This document shows positions 24,085 through 37,017 of a stretch of DNA of 64,000 nt, in pieces. The stretch is from the NCBI GenBank assembly GCA_014905635.1, contig JABVCE010000003.1, positions 868,001 through 932,000 on the forward strand, in the 5' to 3' direction. How positions within the stretch are numbered: the stretch's first letter is position 1; each line of letters opens with the position of its first letter. The stretch comes from Scenedesmus sp. PABB004 (taxonomy: Eukaryota). The notes under the pieces are model-generated. The model saw only the letters and a program-made list of their open reading frames with translations. It did not search any database and was not told the DNA's origin. The position numbers and the translations under genes are program-made.

Positions 24085-24365
24085 GCGCCGCCGCGAGCGC
24101 TGCCGCGAGCGCCGAGGGGTGCGGCGGCGCGGCAGGATGTGCGGTGTGTCGTCGTTTGAGGCCGCGCGTGTATTGGCTGCGCATGCGGCCGCGCGGCGGC
24201 GGCTGCCGCGCGGCCGCGCGGCGCATTGACCTCGGGCGTGCCGAGTGGGTTGACAGCACTGCGCACTGTGCACTGACGGTGGTTGCCGAGACTTCAGAGA
24301 GAGAGAGACGGGGAGAGAGGCGCGCGGCGGCGAGAAGCGGGGAACCTCGGGCGCGCGCGCGGGCT

Positions 24366-24370
24366 TGTAA
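24366..24370 (+). promoter_or_regulatory. TGTAA polyadenylation signal for NFU
   Basis: TGTAA about 280 nt downstream of the NFU stop and before the next ATG. Confidence 0.65.
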
Positions 24371-24599
24371 AGTAGGCACACACTCGCTGGCGCGAGGCGG
24401 TTGGCCGCCAGCCTGTGACGGACGCAGGCGGCGTGCCGCGGTGCTGCCTGCACGCAGGCGCGCCGGCAACGCCACAATCGCGCTCTGCTCTCTGCATGCC
24501 CAGCACCTCGGAAGCGCCGCGCGCTGCGGCCGTGAGCAGCAGCGAAGGCCCCCCGCAGCCCGCGCGCGCGCGTTCGCCGGCCCCCCGTTCGGGGGAGCC

Positions 24600-26877
24600 A
24601 TGATGGCGCGCGGCGGGCTGGCGATCTTTCTGCTATTTGCACTATGCAGCTCGCCAGCGCGCGCGGTGCCCGCCTGCGGAGCGGGGCGGGATGCCCGGCG
24701 CGGGCAGCCCGCTCCCGCCGCGTTCGGCCACTCCGGCTCGCGCGGCTCGCTCCGAGTGCTAGCTGAGGTGCGAGACAGCCTTGGGCGCGCTGGCATGACC
24801 GGCAGCGCCGGGGCACGGTGGTTGGCCGCGGGCGCCGCTGCTGCTGCCCTGGCCGCGCCGCCAGGCGGCTGCGCCAGGGCCCGCGAGCTGCCGGCGAGCC
24901 CGCCTGAGCTGCCGCCACTCACCGCCGCCGCAGGTGCAGCCCGGCGGCGAGCGTGGAGGGCAGCAGCGGCGCCCGCTGCCCGTGCTGCACCGCAAGCAGC
25001 TGCGCGGCGGCCCCGCCGCGGCCGGCGGGGCCGCCGGCGGCGGCTGGCTGGACGCGTTCGTCGCGCGCCGCTCGCTGCAGCAGCTCGGCGGCTATGCCGT
25101 TGCGGCAGCGGCCGGCCCCGCGCTGACGCAGCTCGGCGGCGGCGCCGCCGGCGCCATGCTGGCCGGGCAGCAGCCGCAGTCGGGCAGCGACGCGGCGCTG
25201 CACGTCTTCACCGGCGCCAACCTGCCGCCCGGCCTCCTGGCCGGCACGCTGGACGGCATTGCCGACACGGTCTGGGGCAGGGGCGCGAGCATTGTGGGCA
25301 CCAAGGGCGACTCGCTCAGCGCCGCGGGCGCGTCCGTCACGGCGCTGGGCGGCATCGCCAACGGCGGCGCGAGCGCCGCCGCCGACGCGGCGCGGCTGCA
25401 GCGCTTTGGCGCGGCGGGCGAGGACCTCGCGGGCGCGCTCGCGCCGGGCGCGGTCGCGGCGCACGGGCTCGCGCTCGGCGTGGGCGGCGCGCTCGCGCCC
25501 ATGGCGCAGCAGGCGGGCGACGACGCGGTCGGGCTGGCGGTGCAGGCCGCCAACGCGGCGCCCGACGGCCTCGCGTCGCTCACCGAGACGACCGACGACA
25601 TCGTGCGCACGCTCTCGCCGTTCCTGGTCAACGGCCGCGACGGCGCGCTCGACGTCGGCGCGCGCGCGACGGTCGCGGCCGCGGCGGCCAAGCAGCGCTT
25701 CATGCATGGCACGGCCCTGCCCATGGCCTCGGACGCGGTCGCCGTCGGCGCCAACATCGGCGCGCCGCTCGGCGCGGGCTGGCAGCAGGGCTTTGGCGAG
25801 GGCTTCTCCGCCGCGATGGACCGCCGGGCGCCCTACGGCGACGGCCCGCGGCCGCGGCCGCCGCGGCGGCGCAGCCCGCGCTGTACCTGCCGGGCTCGTA
25901 CGCGCCGCTGGGCGCGATGGCGACGATCACCTACCCCTGCCCCATGGGGCTGCAGAACAGCACCACGCCGGCGGGGACGATCGTGGGGCCCGGCATCCCC
26001 TGCGGCACGGCGCTGCAGATGGTGCCGCGCGCGGCGGTGCCGACCAACGCGTTTGCGCCGCCGGTCGTCGTGCCCCTGCCGACGGAGCCGCCGGTGAGCT
26101 CGCGCGGCGCCGGGAACGCGGGCGGCTGGGGCTGGCTGCGCGGTCGGGCGCTGATCAGTCGCTGACCGCCCGCCTGCGCGCGCCCCGCAGGCGCTGCCGC
26201 CGGCGCTGCCGTCGCCCGTCGCCATCCCGTCACCCCGCTGCCGCCGCCCGGCGGCGGCGGCACGCCGCCCGTGGGGCCGCCCGTGTCGTCGCCTATCGTG
26301 CGCCCGCCGGCCGACGGCGGCGTGCCGCCGGTCACGCCGACGCTGCCGCCGGGCACCGTCCCGCCCAACGTCGGGCCGCCGCCCTCGCCGCCGGCGACCG
26401 GGCTGCCCCCGGGGACGGTCCCGCCCATCGTCAACCCCACGCCGGCGCCGCCCGCCGGGGGCGTGCCGCCGTCGTCGCCCATCCCCCGACCGGCGCGCCG
26501 CTGCCTCCCTCGGCGCCGCTGCCGCCGTCGACGCCGATCCCCGCGACGCCGCTGCCCGCGACGCCGCGGCCGTCGAGCCCCAACGTTCAGCAGTACACGG
26601 TGCGGCGCCCGGTCTACATGACCTACGAGGGCGGCACCCAGCTCGCCCCCGGCCCGGCGCCGTACGACCTTATGCGCATGCAGGCCCCCGCGCCGCCGCG
26701 CGCACCGCGCCGGTGCGCGTCGGCGGCCCGTACGCGAGCGCCGCGGAGGCCGCGGCGGCGGCCGCGGCCGCGGCGCGCGGCGCGGCCTGGCGCGGCGCGG
26801 CGGCGCCGCCGGCGGGCGCGGGCGGCGGCTGGGGCGAGGCGCTGCTGTCGCGCGCGCGCTGGGGTCTGCGGCGGTGA
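24600..26877 (+). CDS. Putative secreted Gly/Ala-rich then Pro-rich (HRGP-like) protein; model crosses apparent frameshifts
   Basis: Signal-peptide-like MMARGGLAIFLLFALCSSPARA, an RRSLQ motif, a Gly/Ala helical region, a small Cys pair (YPCPMG...IPCGT) and a long PPVTPTLPPGTVPP tract. The 3' end is uncertain. Confidence 0.5.
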
Positions 26878-27018
26878 GGGGCTCTGCGTCGGGGGCGCAG
26901 TGAGCGGTCGCGCCTGCTGCGAAGCGGGTGGCGCCGACAGCCGGCGGCGAGCTGGGCGGGGCTGTGACAGGCCCTCCTGAAATGCGCTCCCACTCCGTGA
27001 GTGAGTGGTGGTGTTGGG

Positions 27019-27023
27019 TTACA
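27019..27023 (-). promoter_or_regulatory. TGTAA polyadenylation signal, probably for the cyclase gene
   Basis: TTACA on the + strand, about 470 nt past the stop at 27492. Confidence 0.5.
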
Positions 27024-27491: not shown

Positions 27492-30243
27492 TCAAGCAAA
27501 CAGGGCGCCGCCGCTCGCCGCGGCGCGCGCGGCCGCGAGCGCCGGCGGCACGCGCAGCCGGACCTCGGGCAGGTCGCGCACCGGGCCGGTGAGCTGCCAG
27601 CTGAGCCGCTCGCCCTTGCCGCGCGGCGGTGTGAGGGGGAAGAGCCGCCCCGCCAGCGCGGCGTGGCGCACCTCGCACATCTCCCACTCGCCCGCGCCCT
27701 TGAACGTGAAGAGCCCGATGTGCACTGCGCTGACCACGTTGGCCGCCTCGTTCAGCGCGACGCTCTCCGAGAGCGACACCGGCACCGACGGCAGGCGGTC
27801 GGTGAGCTGCAGCTGCGCGACGAGCCCCGGCCCCATGCCGCCGCCCGCCTCGGTCGCGCTCTTGCTGCGCGGCGCGAGGCCCATCGACGTGAGGCTGCCC
27901 TCGCTGCTGCTCAGCACGCGCAGGCCGCCGCCGTTGGCGCGGGCCGCCGGGCTCAGCCGCGGCGGCAGGCCCGAGTCGAGCGGCGGCAGGTAGCGCATCG
28001 CCGCCGTCTCGCTGCGCGCGCTGCGCTGCACGAGCAGGAGCCCGCCGGGGTCGAGGCGGCGCGACTGCGCCGCGAGCGCGCGGCGCGCCTGCAGCGTGCC
28101 CCAGCTCGGCGCCAGCGGCTTGCCCTCCGCGATCGTCGCCTCCGCCGAGCGCAGGTCGAGCAGCGGCGGCGCGCGCGCCGCGAGCTCCGCCGCCGCGCGC
28201 TCCGCCGACTGCAGGCCGAGCAGCTGGTCCTGCAGCTGCTGCTGCGTCAGCACCTCGCCGCCGCCGCCGCCGCCGCCACCGCTGACGCTGCCGCCGCCGC
28301 GCGCGTTGGGCGCGGCGCTGAAGCTGCCGCCGCCGCGCGCGTTGAGCGCGGCGCTGAAGCTGGGCGTGATGAGCCCCTCCTCGCGCTCCTGGCTGACCCA
28401 GTCCATGACCAGCCGGCGCACGAGCTCCACGTTGGTCACCACCTGCCCGCCGTGCGCCGTGGCGTCCATGAAGCGCGACGCACAGTTGATGCTGCTGCCG
28501 TAGTAGTTGGCGCGGCCGCTGTGGTCGGGCAGCACGCTCGTGGGCTGGCCCTCGGCGAGGCCCATGCGCAGGCGGGGGCCGCGGAAGAGCGGCAGCCCCG
28601 TGGCGGGGTCAGGGACCTCCTCAAAGCCCGGGTGCGCCAGCACGTGCGCGGGCCAGGGCACGTACATGAGCGCCTCCTGCGCGGCGCGGCGCGGCGGCGC
28701 GGCGCGGTGGGCGGCGCGGTGGGCGGGCGACGCGGCGTGGCACGCGGCACGCGGCACGCGGCATGCGGGCGCCGCACCTGGACGAGCAGGCACCACTGCA
28801 CCGCGTTGTGGGGCTGCTCAAAGGCAATCATGTAGCTCATGTCGCTCTCCTCGCACCTGGCCGTGGTGGTGAGGCGGCGGCGGCGCTAGGTGAGGCGGCG
28901 ACGCGCGGGCGGCGCAGCGACGCGGCCGGCGGCGGCGGCGCGCGCAGCGGCGGCGGCGGTGCGCGCGGCGTGAGCACGCGGCAGCGGCGCGCGCCTGCAG
29001 AGGTAGCCGTCGCGCGAGGGCAGCGCGTCGAGCTGCGCGACCATGCACTTGACGATCGCGTCGTGCAGCACGCTCGTGTCGCGGTGCGCGCGCCTGCTCG
29101 CGTACGCGGCGCCGCCCGCGACACTCGCAAACACGACCGTCACGTCGGGCAGCGGGCTCAGCGTGTGCCCCAGCAGCAGCGACGTGGGAATGAGGTCCAT
29201 CTGCCGCGCGCCTGCGCGGCGCGGCGCGGCGGCGCGGGGAGGCGGGCGGCGATCAACGCGCCGCGCCGGCGGCGCCGCGGCGGCAGGGCCCGCCCGCGCG
29301 CGCGCTTCGCGGCGCCGCGCGGCGCGCCCCGTGCGGTGGCGCTGCACGGTGCCCCGCCCGCCCAGCGTGGGATCACTCACTCGGCGCGTCAAAGTAGCCC
29401 TTCTGCACCTTGACCCAGCCCGGCTTCATCGTCACGTGCTGGCTCCACCCGGGCATGAGCCCGAGCGGCCCCGCGCCGCCCGGCGGCTTGCGCATGCCCG
29501 GCGCGGCGATGGAGTACAGGTGCAGCACGCCCGTGCGCCCGCGCCGGCTGCTGTTGCGCCCCGCGTTGGCGCGCGCCATGCCGCGCCGGCTGCGGTGCTG
29601 CTTCGCGGCCGCCTCGCCCGCCTCGCCCGCCTCGCCAGCGGTGGCGGCGGCGGCGCCGCCGCCGTCGGCGGCGCCACCGCCCGCACCCGCCGCGGCGGTG
29701 GCGGCGGCCGCCGCCTTGCGCGCCGCGGCCGCCCGCGTCGGCGAGTCGGGGTCGGTGTCGGTGCCCGTCGTGGTGCCGCCGCCCTCGTCGGCGAGGGACG
29801 AGGGCACCGCGTAGGAGCCCATGTGCACCACGATCGCGTCATTGTCGTCGTCCTGCACGCCCCGGTCGTACGCCGACTCGGTGAACGAGCCCTCGCGCCC
29901 CGAGTGCCTGCGGCGCGCGCGCGGGGCGCGGGGCCGGGTCGGGGCGGCCGCAGGGGCCGGCGCGCCGCTGCCGCCGCCGCCGCCGCCGCCTCCGCCGCGG
30001 GTGCCGCCGCCGCAGTGCTTGCCGCCGCCGCGCCGCGGCCGCGGGCCTCACTTTGCGCACGCGCCGCACGCGCGGCCCTTGAGCTTGTCCACGACCTGGG
30101 CGTGCATGAGGCGCTGCAGCATCTTGTCGTCGTAGCCCGCCTCGTTGACCGTGCCGAGCACGCTGAGGCTGTCCTTGATGAGCAGGAACGTGCCCTCGTC
30201 GATCAGCACCTGCCCGCCCGCCGCGACGTCGCTCACCAGCTCT

Positions 30244-30305
<62 letters not shown>

Positions 30306-33300
30306 ACGCGTCGCGCGGCGCGGGCGGCTCGGCCGCGCGGCCAGGGCAGCGCGCGCGCGTGCCGAGCCGCTGCTGCGCCGCCGCACCCTTTGCGCGGTAG
30401 CGCGCGCGGCAGCTGTTGATGTCGGTGCCGTACGTCAGCGTGCCGGACGCGATGCCAATGCGCACGGCGAGCTCGAGTCGCTTCAGGTGCACCGTGCCCG
30501 GCCCGGAGGCGCCGGTGCCGCTGCCGCCCGGGCCGCCGGCGCGGCCGGTCATCGCCGTCAGGCGCTGCATGAGCGAGCTCGTCATGCCGCTGCGCCGCCG
30601 AAACGCGGCCGAGCCGCCGCCGCTGCTGCTGAAGGGCCGGTTGTCCAGCATGCCTGACAAGCCGGAGCCGGCGTGGGAGCTGTTGCGCCCGTCGGGCAGG
30701 CGCTCGCCGAGCCAGCTGCCGCCGGCCTCGAGGTCGGGCCGCGGCTCGCTGCCGCCGCCGATGCGCGGCAGCGTGGCGTCGCTGTTGTCGCGCGCCGAGT
30801 GCGTGTCGCTGTGCACCGAGCCGCGCACGCTGCCGACGCGCTGCTCGCCGGCGCCGCCGCCGTCGCTGCTGGCGCGCGGGCTGCCAAACAGCCGCGCCAG
30901 CGCGCCCGCCGCGCGCGTGCCGAGCGTCTCACTCGGCACCGGCATCACCAGGTCCAGCTGCCCGCTGTGGCTGCTGGTGCTGCTGCACACGCCGTGCCCG
31001 CCGCCGCCGCTGCGGCCAGACGTGAAGCTCGCGATCGCGCCGCCGCCCATCTGGCGCACGCGGTGCACGAGCAGCTCCGGCAGCGGCAGGTCGGCCGAGA
31101 GCGTGCGGTCGACGCCGCGCTCCGCGCCGGGGATGGGGATGGGCGCCGCGCCCGGCGCCGGCGGCGGCGGCGCGGCGGTGCTGTCGTAGCTGGCGCCGCG
31201 CAGGCTGCCGGGCACGCCGCGCGCGGTGACGGGCGCGATGCTGGACGCCGTGTCGCCCGTGAGCAGGCCGCTGGGCTTGCCCGCCGAGCCGGCGCCCTCC
31301 TGGCGCAGCGCGTCAACCAGGATGTCAAGCTGCTGGTTGGCTGAGTGGGGCAGCCGCACATCCCACACCTTGTTGGCGAGCGCCTGCTGGACCTGTGCGG
31401 CGGCGCGGCGACGGCGGCTCGGCGGCCGCGCCGCGGCGGCCAGCCGCCGCGCGCCCGCGCGCTGCAGCAGCCCGCACCCCCGCCCGGGCAGCCGCGCACC
31501 TGCAGGCTGAACGCAACCGCGTCGTCGGCGTCGTGGAAGCCCACCACCCACGAGTCGCCCTCCTGCGCGCACACGCGCGTGTCACCGCGCGGTCCGTCAG
31601 CCCGCCGCCGCGAGCACACGCGCGCGCCCGTGCGAGGGGCGAGGCCGGCGCTGGCGCCGGCCGGCACGCGGCGGCGCGCGGCGCGCGGCGGGCGGCGGGC
31701 GCAGCGCGCGGCGGCGCGGCGCGGCGCGCGCGCGCCTGGTCGAGGACGTATCCGGCGTGCGTGTGGCAGGCCTTGCGGAAGATGGTGTTGTGGTGGCTCA
31801 TCGCCTTGCGCATGAGTCCCGGGTACTGCTGCGTGAGCGCGCTGTAGTCCTTGACGTCCGTCACGACCACGCTCACGTGCAGGCGGTCGCCCGGCTTGAC
31901 CGCGCGCGGCGCGCCCTGCACGCGCTTGGCCTGCATCACGCGCTCGCGCAGCCAGCGCGGCCGCGTGCGCAGGTAGAGCTGCGAGACGAGGACGAGCACC
32001 GACAGCACGCCGAGCCCAGCGATCGCAGCGATCACCGCGACCAGGATGCGCGTCGTGCGGCTGCCGCCGGCCTGCTCGCGGCACGACAGCCGCGTGCCGT
32101 TGTCGGACCAGACCTCGTCAAAGCCCTGCGGCGGCGCGGGCAGCAGGGGGGCGGCGTCGGCGGCGCGCCGCGCGCGCTGCGGGCCGCGTGGCAAAAGTGC
32201 CGGCGCGCCGCCGCCGCCCGCCGCGGGCCCGCCGCGCTGCGCCGCCGCCGCCGCGCCCACCTGCAGGCATGAGCAGCCCTGGTACTGGTAGTATGAGGGG
32301 TCGAGGCCCCAGCTCTGGTCACTGCTGGCGGGCTGTATGTCTGGCAGGTCCTTGGCCTCGTCGGCGAGGCCCCAGATGCCGGCGACTTGGGCGCAGTCGG
32401 CCCGCGCGGCGGCGGGCGCCTTGCGCACAAGGTACTTGCAGCGCATGCTGCTCGCGTCCTCGCGCGGCAGCGACTCCTCGCTGAACGTGAGGAAGCACGG
32501 CAGCGCCTGCTCGCGGCTGCACGCCGCGCCGCGCGGGACCGCGGGCGTCACCTCCGGCGTCTTGCACACGCGCGGGTCGCTGCAGCTCGCGTTTGTCGTG
32601 ATCGTGAACGCCCGCGTCACGCCGGCGCAGGAGAAGCTCGTGTTGGTGAGCTTGGCGGCGCGGAGCTTTTCGAGGAAGCCCATCGTCGGCGGCACGATGC
32701 CGGTGAGGCCGACGTTGCCCGACATGTCAATGTCGCGCAGCGCGCCGGTGAAGCCGATCGCGGTCTCCGGGATGGTGCCGACCAGGCGGTTGGAGCTGCG
32801 CGCGCGCGCGCGCGTGCGCGGCGGGCGGCGCGGCGTGCGTCGGCGCGGCGCGGCGCGCGTCGGCGCGGCGCGGCGCGGCGCACGCCGGCGGTGCGGTGCT
32901 GCGGGTGATCGTTAAGCAATCAACAACTAAAACAATGCGTCACCTGAAGTCGATGGAGCGGATGGATGGCAGGTAGTAGATGTCCTCCGTCATCGTCCCA
33001 GTCAGCTGCCGGCGGCGCGGTGCGGCGCGCGGCGCGCGCGCGGGCGCGTCGGGTCAGCTGGCACGGCGCGGCGTGGCGGGCGGGTCGGCGCTGCGTGCAC
33101 ACCTGGTTGGAGCCGACGTTGAGCGTCTTGAGGCTGCTCAGGAGCGTGATCTGGTTGGGGATGGGCCCCATGATCTGGTTGTGGCTGATGTCCAGGTGCT
33201 CCAGGATCTCGGCGTGCAGGCAGAGCGCGAGCGGGAGCGTCCCGCTGAACGCGTTGTTGGTCGCCTGCGACGCGGGCGCCGGCGCGGCGTGGGCGCGGGC

Positions 33301-34926
33301 GCCGGCGGTGCCGCCGGTGGCCGCGCGCAGCCGGACGCCGCGCCTGGTAGCTGGCGAGGTCCTTCCAGTCCTTGCTGGCCGGCAGGGGACCGTCAAAGGT
33401 GTTGTCGCTGATGTCGAGCTGCACCAGGTTGGCGCAGCGCTCCACCACCCGCGCGCTGCCCTCCAGGCCGTTGGCGCGCAGGTTGATCTGCCGCAGGCTG
33501 CTGTTGGCTGCGGCGCGCGGCGGGCGGCGCGCGGCGGGCGGGCGGCGTCGGCGGCGCCCGCCGGCCAGCGTGTGGCGCCGCGCCGTGTCGCGGCGGCTGC
33601 GGCGCGCACCGCCGTCGTGGCACAGCGACGCCGGCAGCCCTCCTGTGAGGAAGAGGTCCTGCGATTGGAAGAGAGTGAGAGAGGAGGGGCGGGAAGGGAG
33701 TGAGGGTGAGAGCTCAGCCTCAGCAGCGGGAGACGGGGGACGGGCGAGGCGGGGAGGGGGCGGAGGGCCGGCGGCGCGCGCCCGGCGGGCGCCGCACCTC
33801 CAGGTTGAGCTCGCGCAGCTTCTTGAGCCGCCCCAGCGCCTCTGGGATGGTGCCGCCGAGCCCCTCGTCCGGCGTGGGCCCCGTCTGTACGCCCATGTTG
33901 AGCACCTGCAGCTCGCTGAGCTCGCCGAGCCAGCTGGGCAGCGTGCCGGTGAAAAAGTTGTTGGAGAGGTTGATGTTGATCAGCCGCGTCATGCGCCGCA
34001 GCGAGGCCGGCACCTCGCCGTGCACCCACGCATTGGCTGCGCGCCAGCGCCGCGGCGGCGGGCGGGCGTGTGGGCGTGTGGGCGTGTGGGCGCGTGGGCG
34101 CGTGGGCGCGCGCGGCGTGGCGCGCCGCGCGGCGCCGCAGCGCTCCCCGATGCACGAGGGGGCGCACCGATGTTGAAGACCTCGAGGCGGTTCATCTGGC
34201 CCCAGGTGTCCGAGATGGAGCCGCCCAGGTTGTTGGCCTCCAGGTCGAGCACTGCGGCGGCGGGCCCACGGGTTGGGGTTGGTGCTCGCGCCGCCGGCGG
34301 CGGGCGCCGCGACGCGCGCGCGCCCCGCGCCGCCCACGAGGCCGTCGCCGCCAGCCGAGCGCCGACGCCGCGTGCGCGCCGCGGGGGCACCACCGCGCCG
34401 TCCCGCGCCCCGCGCCCCGCGACGCCGCCGCCGTCGCTTTCGCCGCCGCCGCACCGGTGAGGCCGCAGTCGTGCAGCTGCAGCACCGCGCCCACAAATGC
34501 GGGGTCGGCCATGCTGACGTTGAGGTTGTTGATCGGCATCTCGATCGCCGTCACCGCGTTGACGACGCTGCACTCCCGCGCCGCCGCCGCGGCCGGCGTG
34601 CAGCACGAGATGCCGTACCAGTCTCGGCAGTAGGGCGGCGCGCCGGCGCCGGCGCCGGCGCCGACGAGCGCCGAGCAGTTCTGGCGCACCGTGAGCTCCC
34701 AGCCGCGCTCCACATCCCAGGCGCCGTCGGGCGGCTGGGAGACGCGGTAGATCGTGGCCAGCGCCTGGCAGAGCGAGACCTGGCAGGCCGGCCCGCAGCT
34801 GCTGCCGATCGCGCCCTTGCAGGAGCGCGACCCCGGCGGGACCGGCGGTGCCGGAGCCGCGACAGCGGCCCCCAGCAGCACCGGCAGCGCCAGCAGCGCC
34901 GCCCAGCAGCCGAGCCGGCCGCGCAT
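27492..34926 (-). CDS. Receptor-type nucleotide cyclase: signal peptide, LRR ectodomain, single TM, two class III adenylate/guanylate cyclase domains
   Basis: Signal MRGRLGCWAALLALPVLLGAAVA; cap YCRDWYGISCC; LRRs such as LININLSNNFFTGTLPSWLGEL and LDISHNQIMGPIPNQI; TM ILVAVIAAIAGLGVLSVLVLV (about 31985-32047). Cyclase 1: VVVTDVKDYS, QEGDSWVVGF, VRIGIASG, GGQVLID. Cyclase 2: RGPRLRMGL, NYYGSSINCASRF, HGGQVV, GLFTFKG. Confidence 0.88.
28287..28361 (-). repeat. 36-bp coding tandem duplication (SFSAA[L/P]NARGGG x2)
   Basis: Two near-identical units inside the insert of cyclase domain 2. Confidence 0.8.
30245..30305 (+). repeat. (GGC)n microsatellite, about 20 units, intronic
   Basis: Pure GGC run immediately before a 3' splice site of the cyclase gene. 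Confidence 0.9.
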
Positions 34927-35238
34927 GGCGATGCCCCGCCTCGCTACGGCGCCCTTAGCCGCTCCATGGCCGCGCCGCCCGTCGCAGCGGCGGCGCCCAG
35001 TCACGGGAGGCCGTCGGCACGGCACGGAGCCAGCCACACGGCGCTTGGCCAGGCAGAGTCTGTCTTCCGGACAGCGTCTGTTTATATGGTGTCGCGATTT
35101 CGCGTCGCGGTGCGGCGATCGTTGATCGCGTCGGGGCCGGCGCGGCCGGGGGCGCGCCGCAGCGGGAGGACTGCAGCAGTCACCCAAGCCCTGCGCCGCC
35201 GCTGCTCGTTTGTCACCTCCACGCCGGCGGCGCCTGCC

Positions 35239-35309
35239 CTAGCGCTGCCTCTTGCCCAGCGCCGGCGCGGCGCCCTGACCCTCGCCCGTGCCCCAGCGCC
35301 ACCGCCCGC

Positions 35310-35340
<31 letters not shown>

Positions 35341-37017
35341 GCGCTCGCCGCCGCCGCGCGCGTTGCGCGGCCGCTCGAGCGCGGCGCGGCAGTCGAGCAG
35401 CAGCGAGAGCCGGCCAAACTCGCCGCCCCCCGCGCCGCCGCCGCCCCGCATCGCCGCGCGGTACGTGGGCGAGCGGTTGCCGGCGTCCCACTCGCCGTCG
35501 CGCGCGGCGGCGCCGCCGTCGGGCGGGTGCGCGCCGCCGCCCGCCCGGCCCGCGCCCTCCAGCGCGGCCGCGGCGCGCGCGTGCAGGCGCCGGAAGAGCG
35601 ACTCGACGTCGGCGTAGCGGTGGCTGCCGCCCGCGACCTCCCGCCCCGTGAGCGGGTCCTCGAGCGCGAGTATGCCCGGCCGCGTGAACGCGGCGCCGAG
35701 CTGCGCGCGCGGCACGACGCCGCCGCGGCGCACCGCGACGGCCTGCGCCGCGCGGTCAAAGCGCCCGCCGCCGCGGCCGCCGCCGCCGCCAAAGCGGGAG
35801 AGGAACGAAAACAGCATCGCGCCGACATGGTCGACCTGGGCCCCCGCCGCGTCCTCCTCCAGCAGATGCGCGATGACCATGTTGGCCAGGGACCAGCTCC
35901 CCAGCCCGCCCGTCGCCACATCCGCGAGGCCGCGCTGCTTGAGGCAGCACTACGGCGCGGCGTGGGCAGGGGTGAGCGGGGCGGGCGTGCGCGGGGGGGC
36001 GCGGGCCGGCGGCGGGCCTCCGCGCCGGGCGTGCGGCGGCCCGGCGCGGTGCCGCACCTTCAGCACCAGGATGAGCGGCCGCACAGCGCTGAAGTCGTTT
36101 TGCTGCGGGCGGCAAAACCAGGCGCCGCGGGCGCGGCGGCGGAGGCCCCGGGTCGGCGCGGCGGGCGCGCGGGCCGGCGCGGCGGGCGCGCCGCGGCTCA
36201 CAAATGACGACAGGAAGCGCGCCGCGCGGATGCCGGCGTCATCGTTGAGGCTCACGTCCAGCTCCAGGCCCGACTGCAGCTGCAGCTTGAGCACCGGCAC
36301 ACGTGCGCGCGAGATGAGCTGGCTGCCCGCGACCGCGCCGGCGCCCAGGCGCTGCCCGTAGCAGACCGCGCGCTCGAGGCGGCGCAGGCAGCCCACGATG
36401 AGGTGGCGCTGCGCGTCGTCAAACGCCCCGGCGCCCGCGTTCGGCTCGGCGAGGCCTGCGGCGGCGGCGCGCGCGCGTGGGCGGCGCGCGCGCGTGGGCG
36501 GCGGGCGCGCCGCACGCAGGCGGCGGCGGGCGCGCCGCACACCCAGGAGCACGACGTCCATGTCCGAAGACCACAGCGCCATGCCCGCCGCGCCGCTGCC
36601 AAAGAGCGAGACCTGCAGCCGCCGCGCGTGCTCGGGCAGCGTCGACGACACGGCGCGCGAGAACGCCGCGAGCGTCTCGTCGCGCGCCCGCTGCTCCTCG
36701 GCGCTCGGAACAACCAGCTCCGCGAAGCGCGCCGCCTCCGCCTGTAGGCCGTCCAGCCACGCCGCAGCGGCTCGGTCGGCGTCGGTCGACGCCGGCAGCG
36801 CCGCGCGCTGCGGCTGCTGAGATGGCGGCTGCTGCTGGTGGTGGTGCTGCTGCTGCGGGTGGTGGTGCTGCTGCGGCGGCGCCGGCTCCTGGCGCTGCGC
36901 GGCCGCCCGCTGCGGCTGCTGCTGCGCGCCGTCGCCGCCCTCCTCGCCGGGCCGCGAGCGCTTCGCGGGCCTCGGGTTGGGCGTCTGGTGGCCCTGCGGC
37001 CAGGCCGCGGCGGCCAT
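35239..37017 (-). CDS. TRF4/PAPD5-like non-canonical poly(A) RNA polymerase (Pol-beta nucleotidyltransferase)
   Basis: VSLFGSGAAGMALWSSDMDVV (GS...DxD), ARVPVLKL...ELDVSLN (third Asp), RPLILVLK, LKQRGLADVATGGLGSWSLANM and LALEDP...REVAGGS. Confidence 0.88.

Follow-up and report, generated by a model that had tools for sequence, protein, structure and literature searches.

The known outputs of leucine-rich repeat (LRR) surface receptors are kinases, kinase co-receptors and TIR adaptors. A gene of the green alga Scenedesmus sp. PABB004 raises the question of whether an ectodomain of this kind can also be coupled to a nucleotide cyclase and, if so, what such a protein would do. The gene lies on the minus strand of contig JABVCE010000003.1 (assembly GCA_014905635.1), within a stretch of 64,000 nucleotides (nt), positions 868,001 to 932,000, that we refer to as the window. 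A sequence-only reading had proposed that it encodes a signal peptide, a Cys cap, LRRs, a Cys-rich stalk, one transmembrane (TM) helix followed by basic residues, and class III cyclase domains, and our analysis bears out this chain of domains. We favour a single-pass receptor adenylate cyclase and, as an explanation of the whole, give it a probability of roughly one half. If correct, it would give LRR surface receptors a third kind of output, next to kinase and TIR.

Linkage of the repeats to the cyclase

The gene model was assembled by hand from the three reading frames of the minus strand, and its ATG at 34926 and TGA ending at 27492 match the span first proposed, 27492..34926. It consists of 16 exons encoding 1,807 residues with no internal stops and a GC content at third codon positions of 0.96, in a window that is intron-rich and ∼ 80% GC. 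The introns measure 79–203 nt (12 GT-AG and three GC-AG); in A+T content 14 of the 15 are below both adjoining exons or nearly so, and intron 3 (0.24) is nearest the exon level. The model shares 43–52% identity with its homologues (identified below by P numbers) over long stretches that include exon joins.

That the repeats and the cyclase belong to one chain is, in our judgement, practically certain. The last two LRRs, the stalk, the TM helix and the first half of the first cyclase domain (D1) form a single stop-free frame across one 135-nt intron, and the TM helix and the start of D1 are both on exon 9. The junction nevertheless depends on this one predicted intron, seen at genome level, so that two neighbouring genes, one for an LRR protein and one for a cyclase, might have been merged by the model. 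We rejected this explanation as extremely improbable: in addition to the shared frame and exon, the poly(A) motif TGTAA does not occur inside the gene, transcript-derived homologues show the fused chain, and nine further loci have the same order. A query covering stalk, TM helix and D1 matched eight proteins among 8,000 candidates; seven carry both LRR and Guanylate_cyc domains and the eighth starts at the end of the TM helix. When the second cyclase domain (D2), which holds no LRR, was used alone, 26 proteins were found among 224 candidates and 18 of them carry LRR domains. The other eight look N-terminally incomplete (two keep stalk and TM helix, six have no TM call), and a different ectodomain was found in none of them. 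LRR and cyclase occur in one chain in Tetradesmus obliquus, Enallax costatus, Monoraphidium minutum, Hariotina reticulata, Chlamydomonas eustigma and Dunaliella tertiolecta. Chains running from LRR through TM helix and D1 to D2 are transcript-derived, by their transcriptome identifiers, in Enallax P0019 and Dunaliella P0145 and P0164. The single-chain linkage first proposed is thus upheld through homologues, those from transcripts included. Enallax P0006 and P0019 fall in one cluster and are both labelled complete; P0006 stops after D1 and P0019 has an aberrant N-terminus. The difference may reflect alternative splicing that omits D2, or faulty assembly.

All folds described here were computed on homologues, not on the receptor's own spliced protein. 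The AlphaFold model of P0006 (mean predicted local distance difference test, pLDDT, 72.9) contains a 13-repeat solenoid. Its best fold matches are RGFR1 (Z 30.9, root-mean-square deviation (rmsd) 2.9, 350 residues aligned), FLS2 (Z 30.5, 2.9, 389) and MIK2 (Z 29.6, 3.6, 374), and the first seven rows (Z ∼ 27–31) are plant LRR receptor ectodomains. This comparison agrees with the plant-type class originally assigned to cap and repeats. Pfam LRR, which had been predicted, matched on exons 3, 5 and 6 (12 stretches scanned). Most repeats have 23–25 residues; one has 31 (a loop-out), one 27, and the last is truncated. The expected LRRNT_2 domain did not materialize, since Pfam gave no match on the receptor cap nor on that of any of eight homologues (0/8). 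The cap, whose motif C-x-x-W-Y-G-I-S-C-C occupies residues 100–109, is supported by structure: the homologue model aligns with FLS2, MIK2 and PGIP from the cap onward, the FLS2 and MIK2 alignments beginning within it. Ten Cys residues lie between residues 467 and 604, and the stalk motif W-x-x-D-P-x-Y-Y...C-x-C-x-x-G is kept family-wide. A homologue search that included the LRRs gave 6,644 matches, dominated by LRR proteins from outside the family, a good number of which carry domains of bacterial type; among the best 120 of the 6,644 only the first is a family member. Plant-type LRRs are thus also found in numerous proteins that appear to be bacterial, and descent from a plant receptor kinase ectodomain does not follow.

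Only one internal hydropathy peak is present (residues 616–634, 2.9), and basic residues come after it. Homologues that extend this far mostly show one internal TM peak too; none was called in P0165. Mean pairwise identity in the juxtamembrane segment is 0.67 within the receptor's clade, compared with 0.36 for the TM helix and ∼ 0.5 for the ectodomain, and only 0.37 family-wide.

The tandem cyclase domains and their predicted composite site

Two Guanylate_cyc domains had been predicted. At the level of Pfam this did not hold for the receptor itself, where single exons gave only E-values of 0.18 and 0.3; the second domain is instead supported by the fold of a homologue model. Among eight homologues, PF00211 matched at E <= 0.1 in all and above the cut-off in five. 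In the model of P0007, which belongs to the same clade as the receptor (mean pLDDT 61, with high values in the folded cores; predicted template-modelling score 0.52), each of the two domains adopts the class III fold (Z 19.9–22.0). D2 matches Trypanosoma brucei GRESAG4.1 (1fx2; Z 22.0, rmsd 2.9, 212 residues aligned) and D1 matches Ma1120 (4wp3; Z 19.9, rmsd 2.0, 162 aligned, long inserts skipped). A PDB sequence search with the single protein P0148 returned only 1fx2 (E 0.34). The D2 profile places its purine-site Arg on Lys and Asp on Asp of GRESAG4.3 (weak, E 0.22); against GRESAG4.1 (E 0.024) the hairpin is shifted, and P0270 and P0292 give the GRESAG4.3-like register.

We assigned catalytic residues according to their described roles in class III enzymes (PMC7384201). 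The second half of D1 has no catalytic Asn and no purine hairpin, Lys replaces the catalytic Arg, and the last strands are split by low-complexity inserts. In D2 the first metal Asp is absent (Ala1343); the codon of Arg1387 is split by the GC-AG intron 14. Residues were tallied over 39 rows (the receptor model and 38 proteins, ∼ six near-duplicate pairs included). The first D1 aspartate is present in 32 of 34 filled rows and the second in 32 of 33, and the first Asp site of D2 holds Asp in none of 37. D2 keeps the purine-site Arg (36/36), with Asp, Asn or Ser at the second purine position (27, 9 and 1 of 37), as well as the catalytic Asn (33/37), catalytic Arg (36/36) and Lys (33/33). By these residue patterns, D1 and D2 are complementary half-sites, each lacking the half of the active site that the other retains, in the manner of mammalian C1 and C2, where catalysis is split between two domains (PMC9552081). 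One site could hold Asp679, Asp722 and Arg1051 from D1 and Asn1477, Arg1481 and Lys1739 from D2, so that the full class III set is present.

The D1 and D2 domains of P0014 were also modelled as two individual chains in the presence of ATP and Mg, and no alignment was used. The pair scored 0.66, compared with 0.00 for the best of three controls; runs share at least 35% of contacts and partner pLDDT is at least 52. The mark for pairing is reached by 51 of 78 solved and two of 108 mismatched pairs (among eukaryotes, 71/105 and 2/126). The confidently modelled interface is formed by the catalytic segments and comprises residues 679–682 and 715–719 of D1 and Arg1206, Asn1289, Asn1296, Arg1300 and Lys1557 of D2. 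Because cyclase dimers have already been solved, this score shows likeness, not binding.

These data suggest a model in which an extracellular ligand, which by analogy could be a peptide, a protein or a piece of cell wall, would bind the LRR solenoid. The TM and juxtamembrane helix might then shift, or the receptor join a partner, and the site between D1 and D2 would close and convert ATP to cyclic AMP (cAMP). In the modelled site two metal aspartates and a phosphate-binding Arg would come from D1. D2 would supply the catalytic Asn and Arg, a phosphate-binding Lys and the purine contacts, which are Arg and Asn in the receptor and Arg and Asp in most family members. A second pocket would be unable to catalyse but may be regulatory, and the disordered inserts are candidate regulatory sites. 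As both half-sites are in one chain, dimerization is not needed to form the site, unlike in trypanosome receptor cyclases. We think it likely that the predicted cyclase is catalytically active, and slightly more so that its activity is controlled through the ectodomain.

Several observations weigh against this model. The folds are those of homologues. Enallax P0006, labelled a complete open reading frame, ends before D2. The single-chain P0007 model superposes only poorly on human AC5 and AC9 over ∼ 320 residues (rmsd 15–16 Å), so that the C1/C2 arrangement was not recovered in cis. In four of 37 rows, all within the receptor's own clade, Ile or Val replaces the catalytic Asn, and P0144 has neither D1 aspartate; some family members may therefore be dead. 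The receptor's specificity pair is Arg/Asn instead of Lys/Asp. Finally, exposed positions on the concave LRR face are no more conserved than those on the convex face (0.45 vs 0.42 among six clade members; 0.22 vs 0.24 among 22). Sequence conservation therefore points to no clear ligand patch there and says nothing clear about the ligand.

The Asn substitutions, together with the long inserts in both cyclase domains and the low Pfam scores, would agree with a tandem domain that, at least in the receptor's clade, binds nucleotide or partner proteins and signals as a scaffold. We consider such a pseudo-enzyme receptor unlikely. All seven positions are intact in the receptor. They hardly vary across Sphaeropleales and Chlamydomonadales, whereas the complementary half is gone, a pattern that fits selection for one working site. 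P0001, P0002, P0009, P0007 and P0144, which have either lost the catalytic Asn to Ile or Val or lost both D1 aspartates, are by the same residues candidate inactive co-receptors or decoys. A slightly less probable alternative is an active cyclase whose site is formed in trans, from D1 and D2 of different chains after ligand-driven dimerization, or whose ectodomain merely anchors or localizes an internally regulated enzyme. The single-chain model without C1/C2 geometry, set beside the pairing of separate chains, would agree with this, as would the Enallax reading frame with D1 only and a like tandem cyclase that lies behind a PAN-domain ectodomain at another locus. However, domains are often misplaced when long disordered chains are modelled at low depth, and the D1–D2 linker appears long enough for pairing in cis.

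Nucleotide choice bears on the remaining part of the receptor adenylate cyclase reading. The purine pair is Lys with Asp or Thr in adenylate cyclases and Glu with Cys or Ser in guanylate cyclases (PMC7384201). D2 provides Arg and Asn in the receptor and Arg and Asp in most family members; the receptor's clade (support 97/97, eight of 34 rows) has Asn, once Ser, in place of Asp. The guanylate cyclase pair is absent from the modelled working site. Database names of family members are automatic, for example 'Guanylate cyclase domain-containing protein', and we rejected a guanylate cyclase of the kind the name suggests on the basis of the D2 pair. An adenylate cyclase is likelier, and if the receptor is active we have good confidence that ATP is preferred. 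It is doubtful that the product is cGMP or that both nucleotides are used, although Arg/Asn could relax or switch the choice of purine, given that Arg stands for Lys in every filled row and Asn for Asp in the well-supported clade. The acidic residue of D1 could also select guanine: Asp or Glu occupies the Lys/Glu position there in nearly all rows, and Glu at this position marks guanylate cyclases (PMC7384201). Against this, the purine residues of the modelled site come from D2, where a basic residue with Asp, in 27 of 37 rows, is the adenine pattern, and the acidic residue of D1, a domain without catalytic Asn, would face the pocket that lacks the metal Asp. A mycobacterial cyclase with Gln/Asn uses both substrates, and in the receptor's clade relaxed specificity or loss of activity are real alternatives to ATP use.

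Family, significance and surroundings of the gene

How widespread the architecture is had been left open; we find a multi-gene family across Sphaeropleales and Chlamydomonadales. In the Scenedesmus sp. PABB004 genome a query with the LRR–cyclase junction hit four other loci and the cap query hit the identical four. With D2 as the query, 14 matches were obtained at 13 loci, receptor gene included; at nine of the 12 others, profile scans revealed the cap, the LRRs and both cyclase domains in sequence. The family therefore numbers 10 loci or more in a genome of 40 Mb; the paralogue counts are based on the order of exons rather than on complete gene models and are to be read as minima. Among the 26 proteins of the wider D2 query (224 candidates, word-limited) no match carried the name of Chlamydomonas reinhardtii or Volvox. 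A representative search returned 129 matches, mostly exon-sized fragments; of nine longer ones that were scanned, two are unrelated bacterial-type proteins, two have LRRs and the rest have cyclase domains.

The paralogues differ in their make-up. A close one, L011 (G000 C24 ∼ 816,000–823,300), lies on the same contig ∼ 75–80 kb away on the opposite strand, and is 83% identical to the receptor gene over 98 residues of D2. L016:2929-8823 (G000 C2, plus strand) is a more divergent LRR–stalk–TM–tandem cyclase, in which the stalk is short and the domains are less degenerate, and may represent an earlier state of the half-site split. L017:1760-8513 (G000 C18, plus strand) has an LRRNT_2 cap above the Pfam cut-off, ∼ 3 LRRs, beta-rich extracellular stretches, a TM helix and at least three cyclase-like domains. 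No LRR was found in the stretch fetched for L020. At L013:4431-6438 (G000 C13, minus strand) a tandem cyclase follows a TM helix and a PAN-domain ectodomain (Pfam PAN_4, E 3e-7) without LRRs and with a possible additional lectin-like stretch. The presence of a PAN ectodomain on a like tandem cyclase implies that ectodomains have been swapped and that the module is portable. In the JGI record P0276 a related cyclase half stands behind an ANF-receptor ectodomain and a TM helix, an arrangement like that of trypanosome receptor cyclases.

In a survey of 101 eukaryotic genomes, Soanes and Talbot (2010) report LRR with PF00211 only in fungi; their set included C. reinhardtii and Volvox, with two LRR receptors each and no LRR kinase (PMC2939053). 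Dievart et al. list LRR receptor kinases in one of six green algae (PMC3268121), and the two surveys record such kinases in just one of the chlorophyte genomes that they covered (PMC2939053, PMC3268121). This scarcity leaves open the route by which chlorophytes respond to outside signals, and a family of at least 10 loci in one genome, present in two algal orders, is a testable candidate answer. It would also overturn the published claim that LRR is combined with class III cyclase in fungi only. The weak Pfam scores suggest that some algal 'LRR-RLPs' (LRR receptor-like proteins) in surveys are overlooked cyclases. The word 'cyclase' is absent from the main texts of Dievart et al. (PMC3268121) and Ngou et al. 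(PMC10834447), and no like protein was found in the accessible parts of PMC12223298, PMC4053784, PMC4758236, PMC13069868, PMC5159850 and PMC12237933. The literature searched, which left most subscription papers and algal genome-paper supplements outside, yielded no description of the LRR–TM–tandem cyclase architecture; an earlier mention elsewhere, for instance in such supplements, is conceivable, the architecture being visible to database queries. Our broader proposal is that chlorophyceans, mostly without LRR receptor kinases, have an undescribed, expanded LRR receptor family with a self-contained, cAMP-making pseudo-heterodimer, its own origin of the C1/C2 split, a purine-site Arg and interchangeable ectodomains (LRR, PAN). 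We regard the case for it as evenly balanced.

The features of the gene are collected in Table 1. Near the gene the minus strand has a single TGTAA, ∼ 470 nt beyond the stop codon; we take this motif to be the chlorophycean poly(A) signal. The window holds five matches where 2.6 are expected, so the motif alone is weak evidence. Upstream, at 35239–36699 of the window on the minus strand, is a gene for a non-canonical poly(A) polymerase of the Cid1/Trf4 type, with Pfam matches to MTPAP-like central (E 5e-11) and PAP_assoc (E 0.005). Its frame stops just ∼ 310 nt before the receptor ATG, and no TGTAA lies between the two. Ala/Gly/Pro-rich open frames on the plus strand (∼ 24,300–26,880) converge on the receptor 3' end; in the one frame scanned, MoeA_N (E 0.015) was the sole weak Pfam match and is probably due to chance.

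Table 1. Features of the receptor gene; positions refer to the window and residues to the hand-built model.
Feature	Position	Strand	Basis
Whole gene, 16 coding exons, 1,807 residues	27492..34926	-	hand-built model
Exons 1–4	34926-34455, 34251-34168, 34036-33798, 33658-33610	-	hand-built model
Exons 5–8	33507-33344, 33264-33103, 33005-32944, 32795-32261	-	hand-built model
Exons 9–12	32125-31736, 31562-31500, 31392-30387, 30241-30052	-	hand-built model
Exons 13–16	29907-29381, 29211-28995, 28856-28778, 28676-27492	-	hand-built model
TATA-like hexamer, ∼ 155 nt before ATG (candidate by sequence)	35081..35086	-	
Predicted signal peptide, residues 1–24	34855..34926	-	hydropathy peak 2.2; hydrophobic stretch residues ∼ 5–24
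Cys-rich N-terminal cap, residues 36–155	34462..34821	-	motif kept in homologues; homologue model aligns
13 plant-type LRRs, residues 156–467, exons 1–8	32627..34461	-	Pfam, repeat list, homologue folds
Cys-rich stalk, residues 468–606	32075..32626	-	motif conservation, reading frame
Intron 8, 135 nt, phase 0, within stalk	32126-32260	-	sole junction of LRR exon and TM-cyclase exon
Single TM helix, residues 616–638	31979..32047	-	hydropathy 2.9
Basic juxtamembrane helix, residues 639–672, candidate transducer	31877..31978	-	continuous with TM helix in P0006 model
Cyclase D1, first half: metal Asp679 (31856-31858), Asp722 (31554-31556)	31357..31876	-	
Ser/Gly-rich insert inside D1, ∼ 290 residues	30484..31356	-	low pLDDT in homologue model; poorly conserved
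Cyclase D1, second half: phosphate-binding Arg1051 (30460-30462)	29499..30483	-	
Cyclase D2 core: Arg1387, Asn1470 (28506-28508), Asn1477 (28485-28487), Arg1481 (28473-28475)	28416..29155	-	
Cyclase D2, last strands: Lys1739 (27699-27701)	27591..27737	-	after ∼ 225-residue low-complexity insert
TGTAA, likely poly(A) signal	27019..27023	-	motif match

Comparison with known systems

Like the plant LRR receptor-like kinases (LRR-RLKs) and LRR-RLPs FLS2, MIK2, RGFR1, ERL1/TMM and PSKR1, the algal receptor has a signal peptide, a cap, 24-residue repeats and a single TM helix. Its Cys cap is longer and is missed by LRRNT_2, and its Cys stalk has ∼ 140 residues. Unlike the LRR-RLKs it carries a tandem cyclase; no kinase match was found on the cytosolic exons or on the homologues, whose folded cytosolic parts are cyclases. 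Its cytosolic part of ∼ 1,170 residues also sets it apart from LRR-RLPs, which have a short tail. In BRI1, PSKR1 and the like, reported cyclase activity resides in a short motif inside other domains and not in a class III domain. An LRR-RLK with such a moonlighting motif was rejected here.

The LRRs of fungal Cyr1 are cytosolic, and the protein has no signal peptide or TM helix and one cyclase domain. The algal receptor differs in having both signal peptide and TM helix, and no match to the PP2C domain of Cyr1 (LRR, PP2C, cyclase) was found on its exons or homologues. Cyr1 represents the sole combination of LRR with PF00211 in the survey of 101 eukaryotic genomes, and its cyclase too groups with those of trypanosomatids (PMC2939053). 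By fold and profile together, trypanosomatid ESAG4/GRESAG4 (1fx2, 1fx4) is the nearest solved cyclase. The trypanosomatid receptor cyclases share a single TM helix, a large ectodomain and a multi-gene family with the algal receptor (PMC4561360), but have a periplasmic-binding-protein-like ectodomain and one complete, homodimerizing domain, whereas the alga has an LRR ectodomain and two half-site domains per chain.

In mammalian membrane adenylate cyclases and soluble guanylate cyclase, as in the algal receptor, residues are split over two domains with one working site (PMC9552081). The mammalian membrane enzymes have two six-helix bundles; in the alga both domains follow a single TM helix in tandem. 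The cyclase being trypanosome-like, the algal half-site split probably had a separate origin. Animal single-pass receptor guanylate cyclases (PMC4053784) and amoebozoan kinase–cyclase–kinase receptors (PMC4758236) likewise combine an ectodomain, one TM helix and a class III cyclase. In these receptors a single cyclase domain is accompanied by kinase or kinase-homology domains, and the algal receptor shows no kinase. In kind, the algal protein is a receptor cyclase, yet it stands outside the LRR-RLK, RLP, trypanosomatid, Cyr1 and guanylate cyclase classes.

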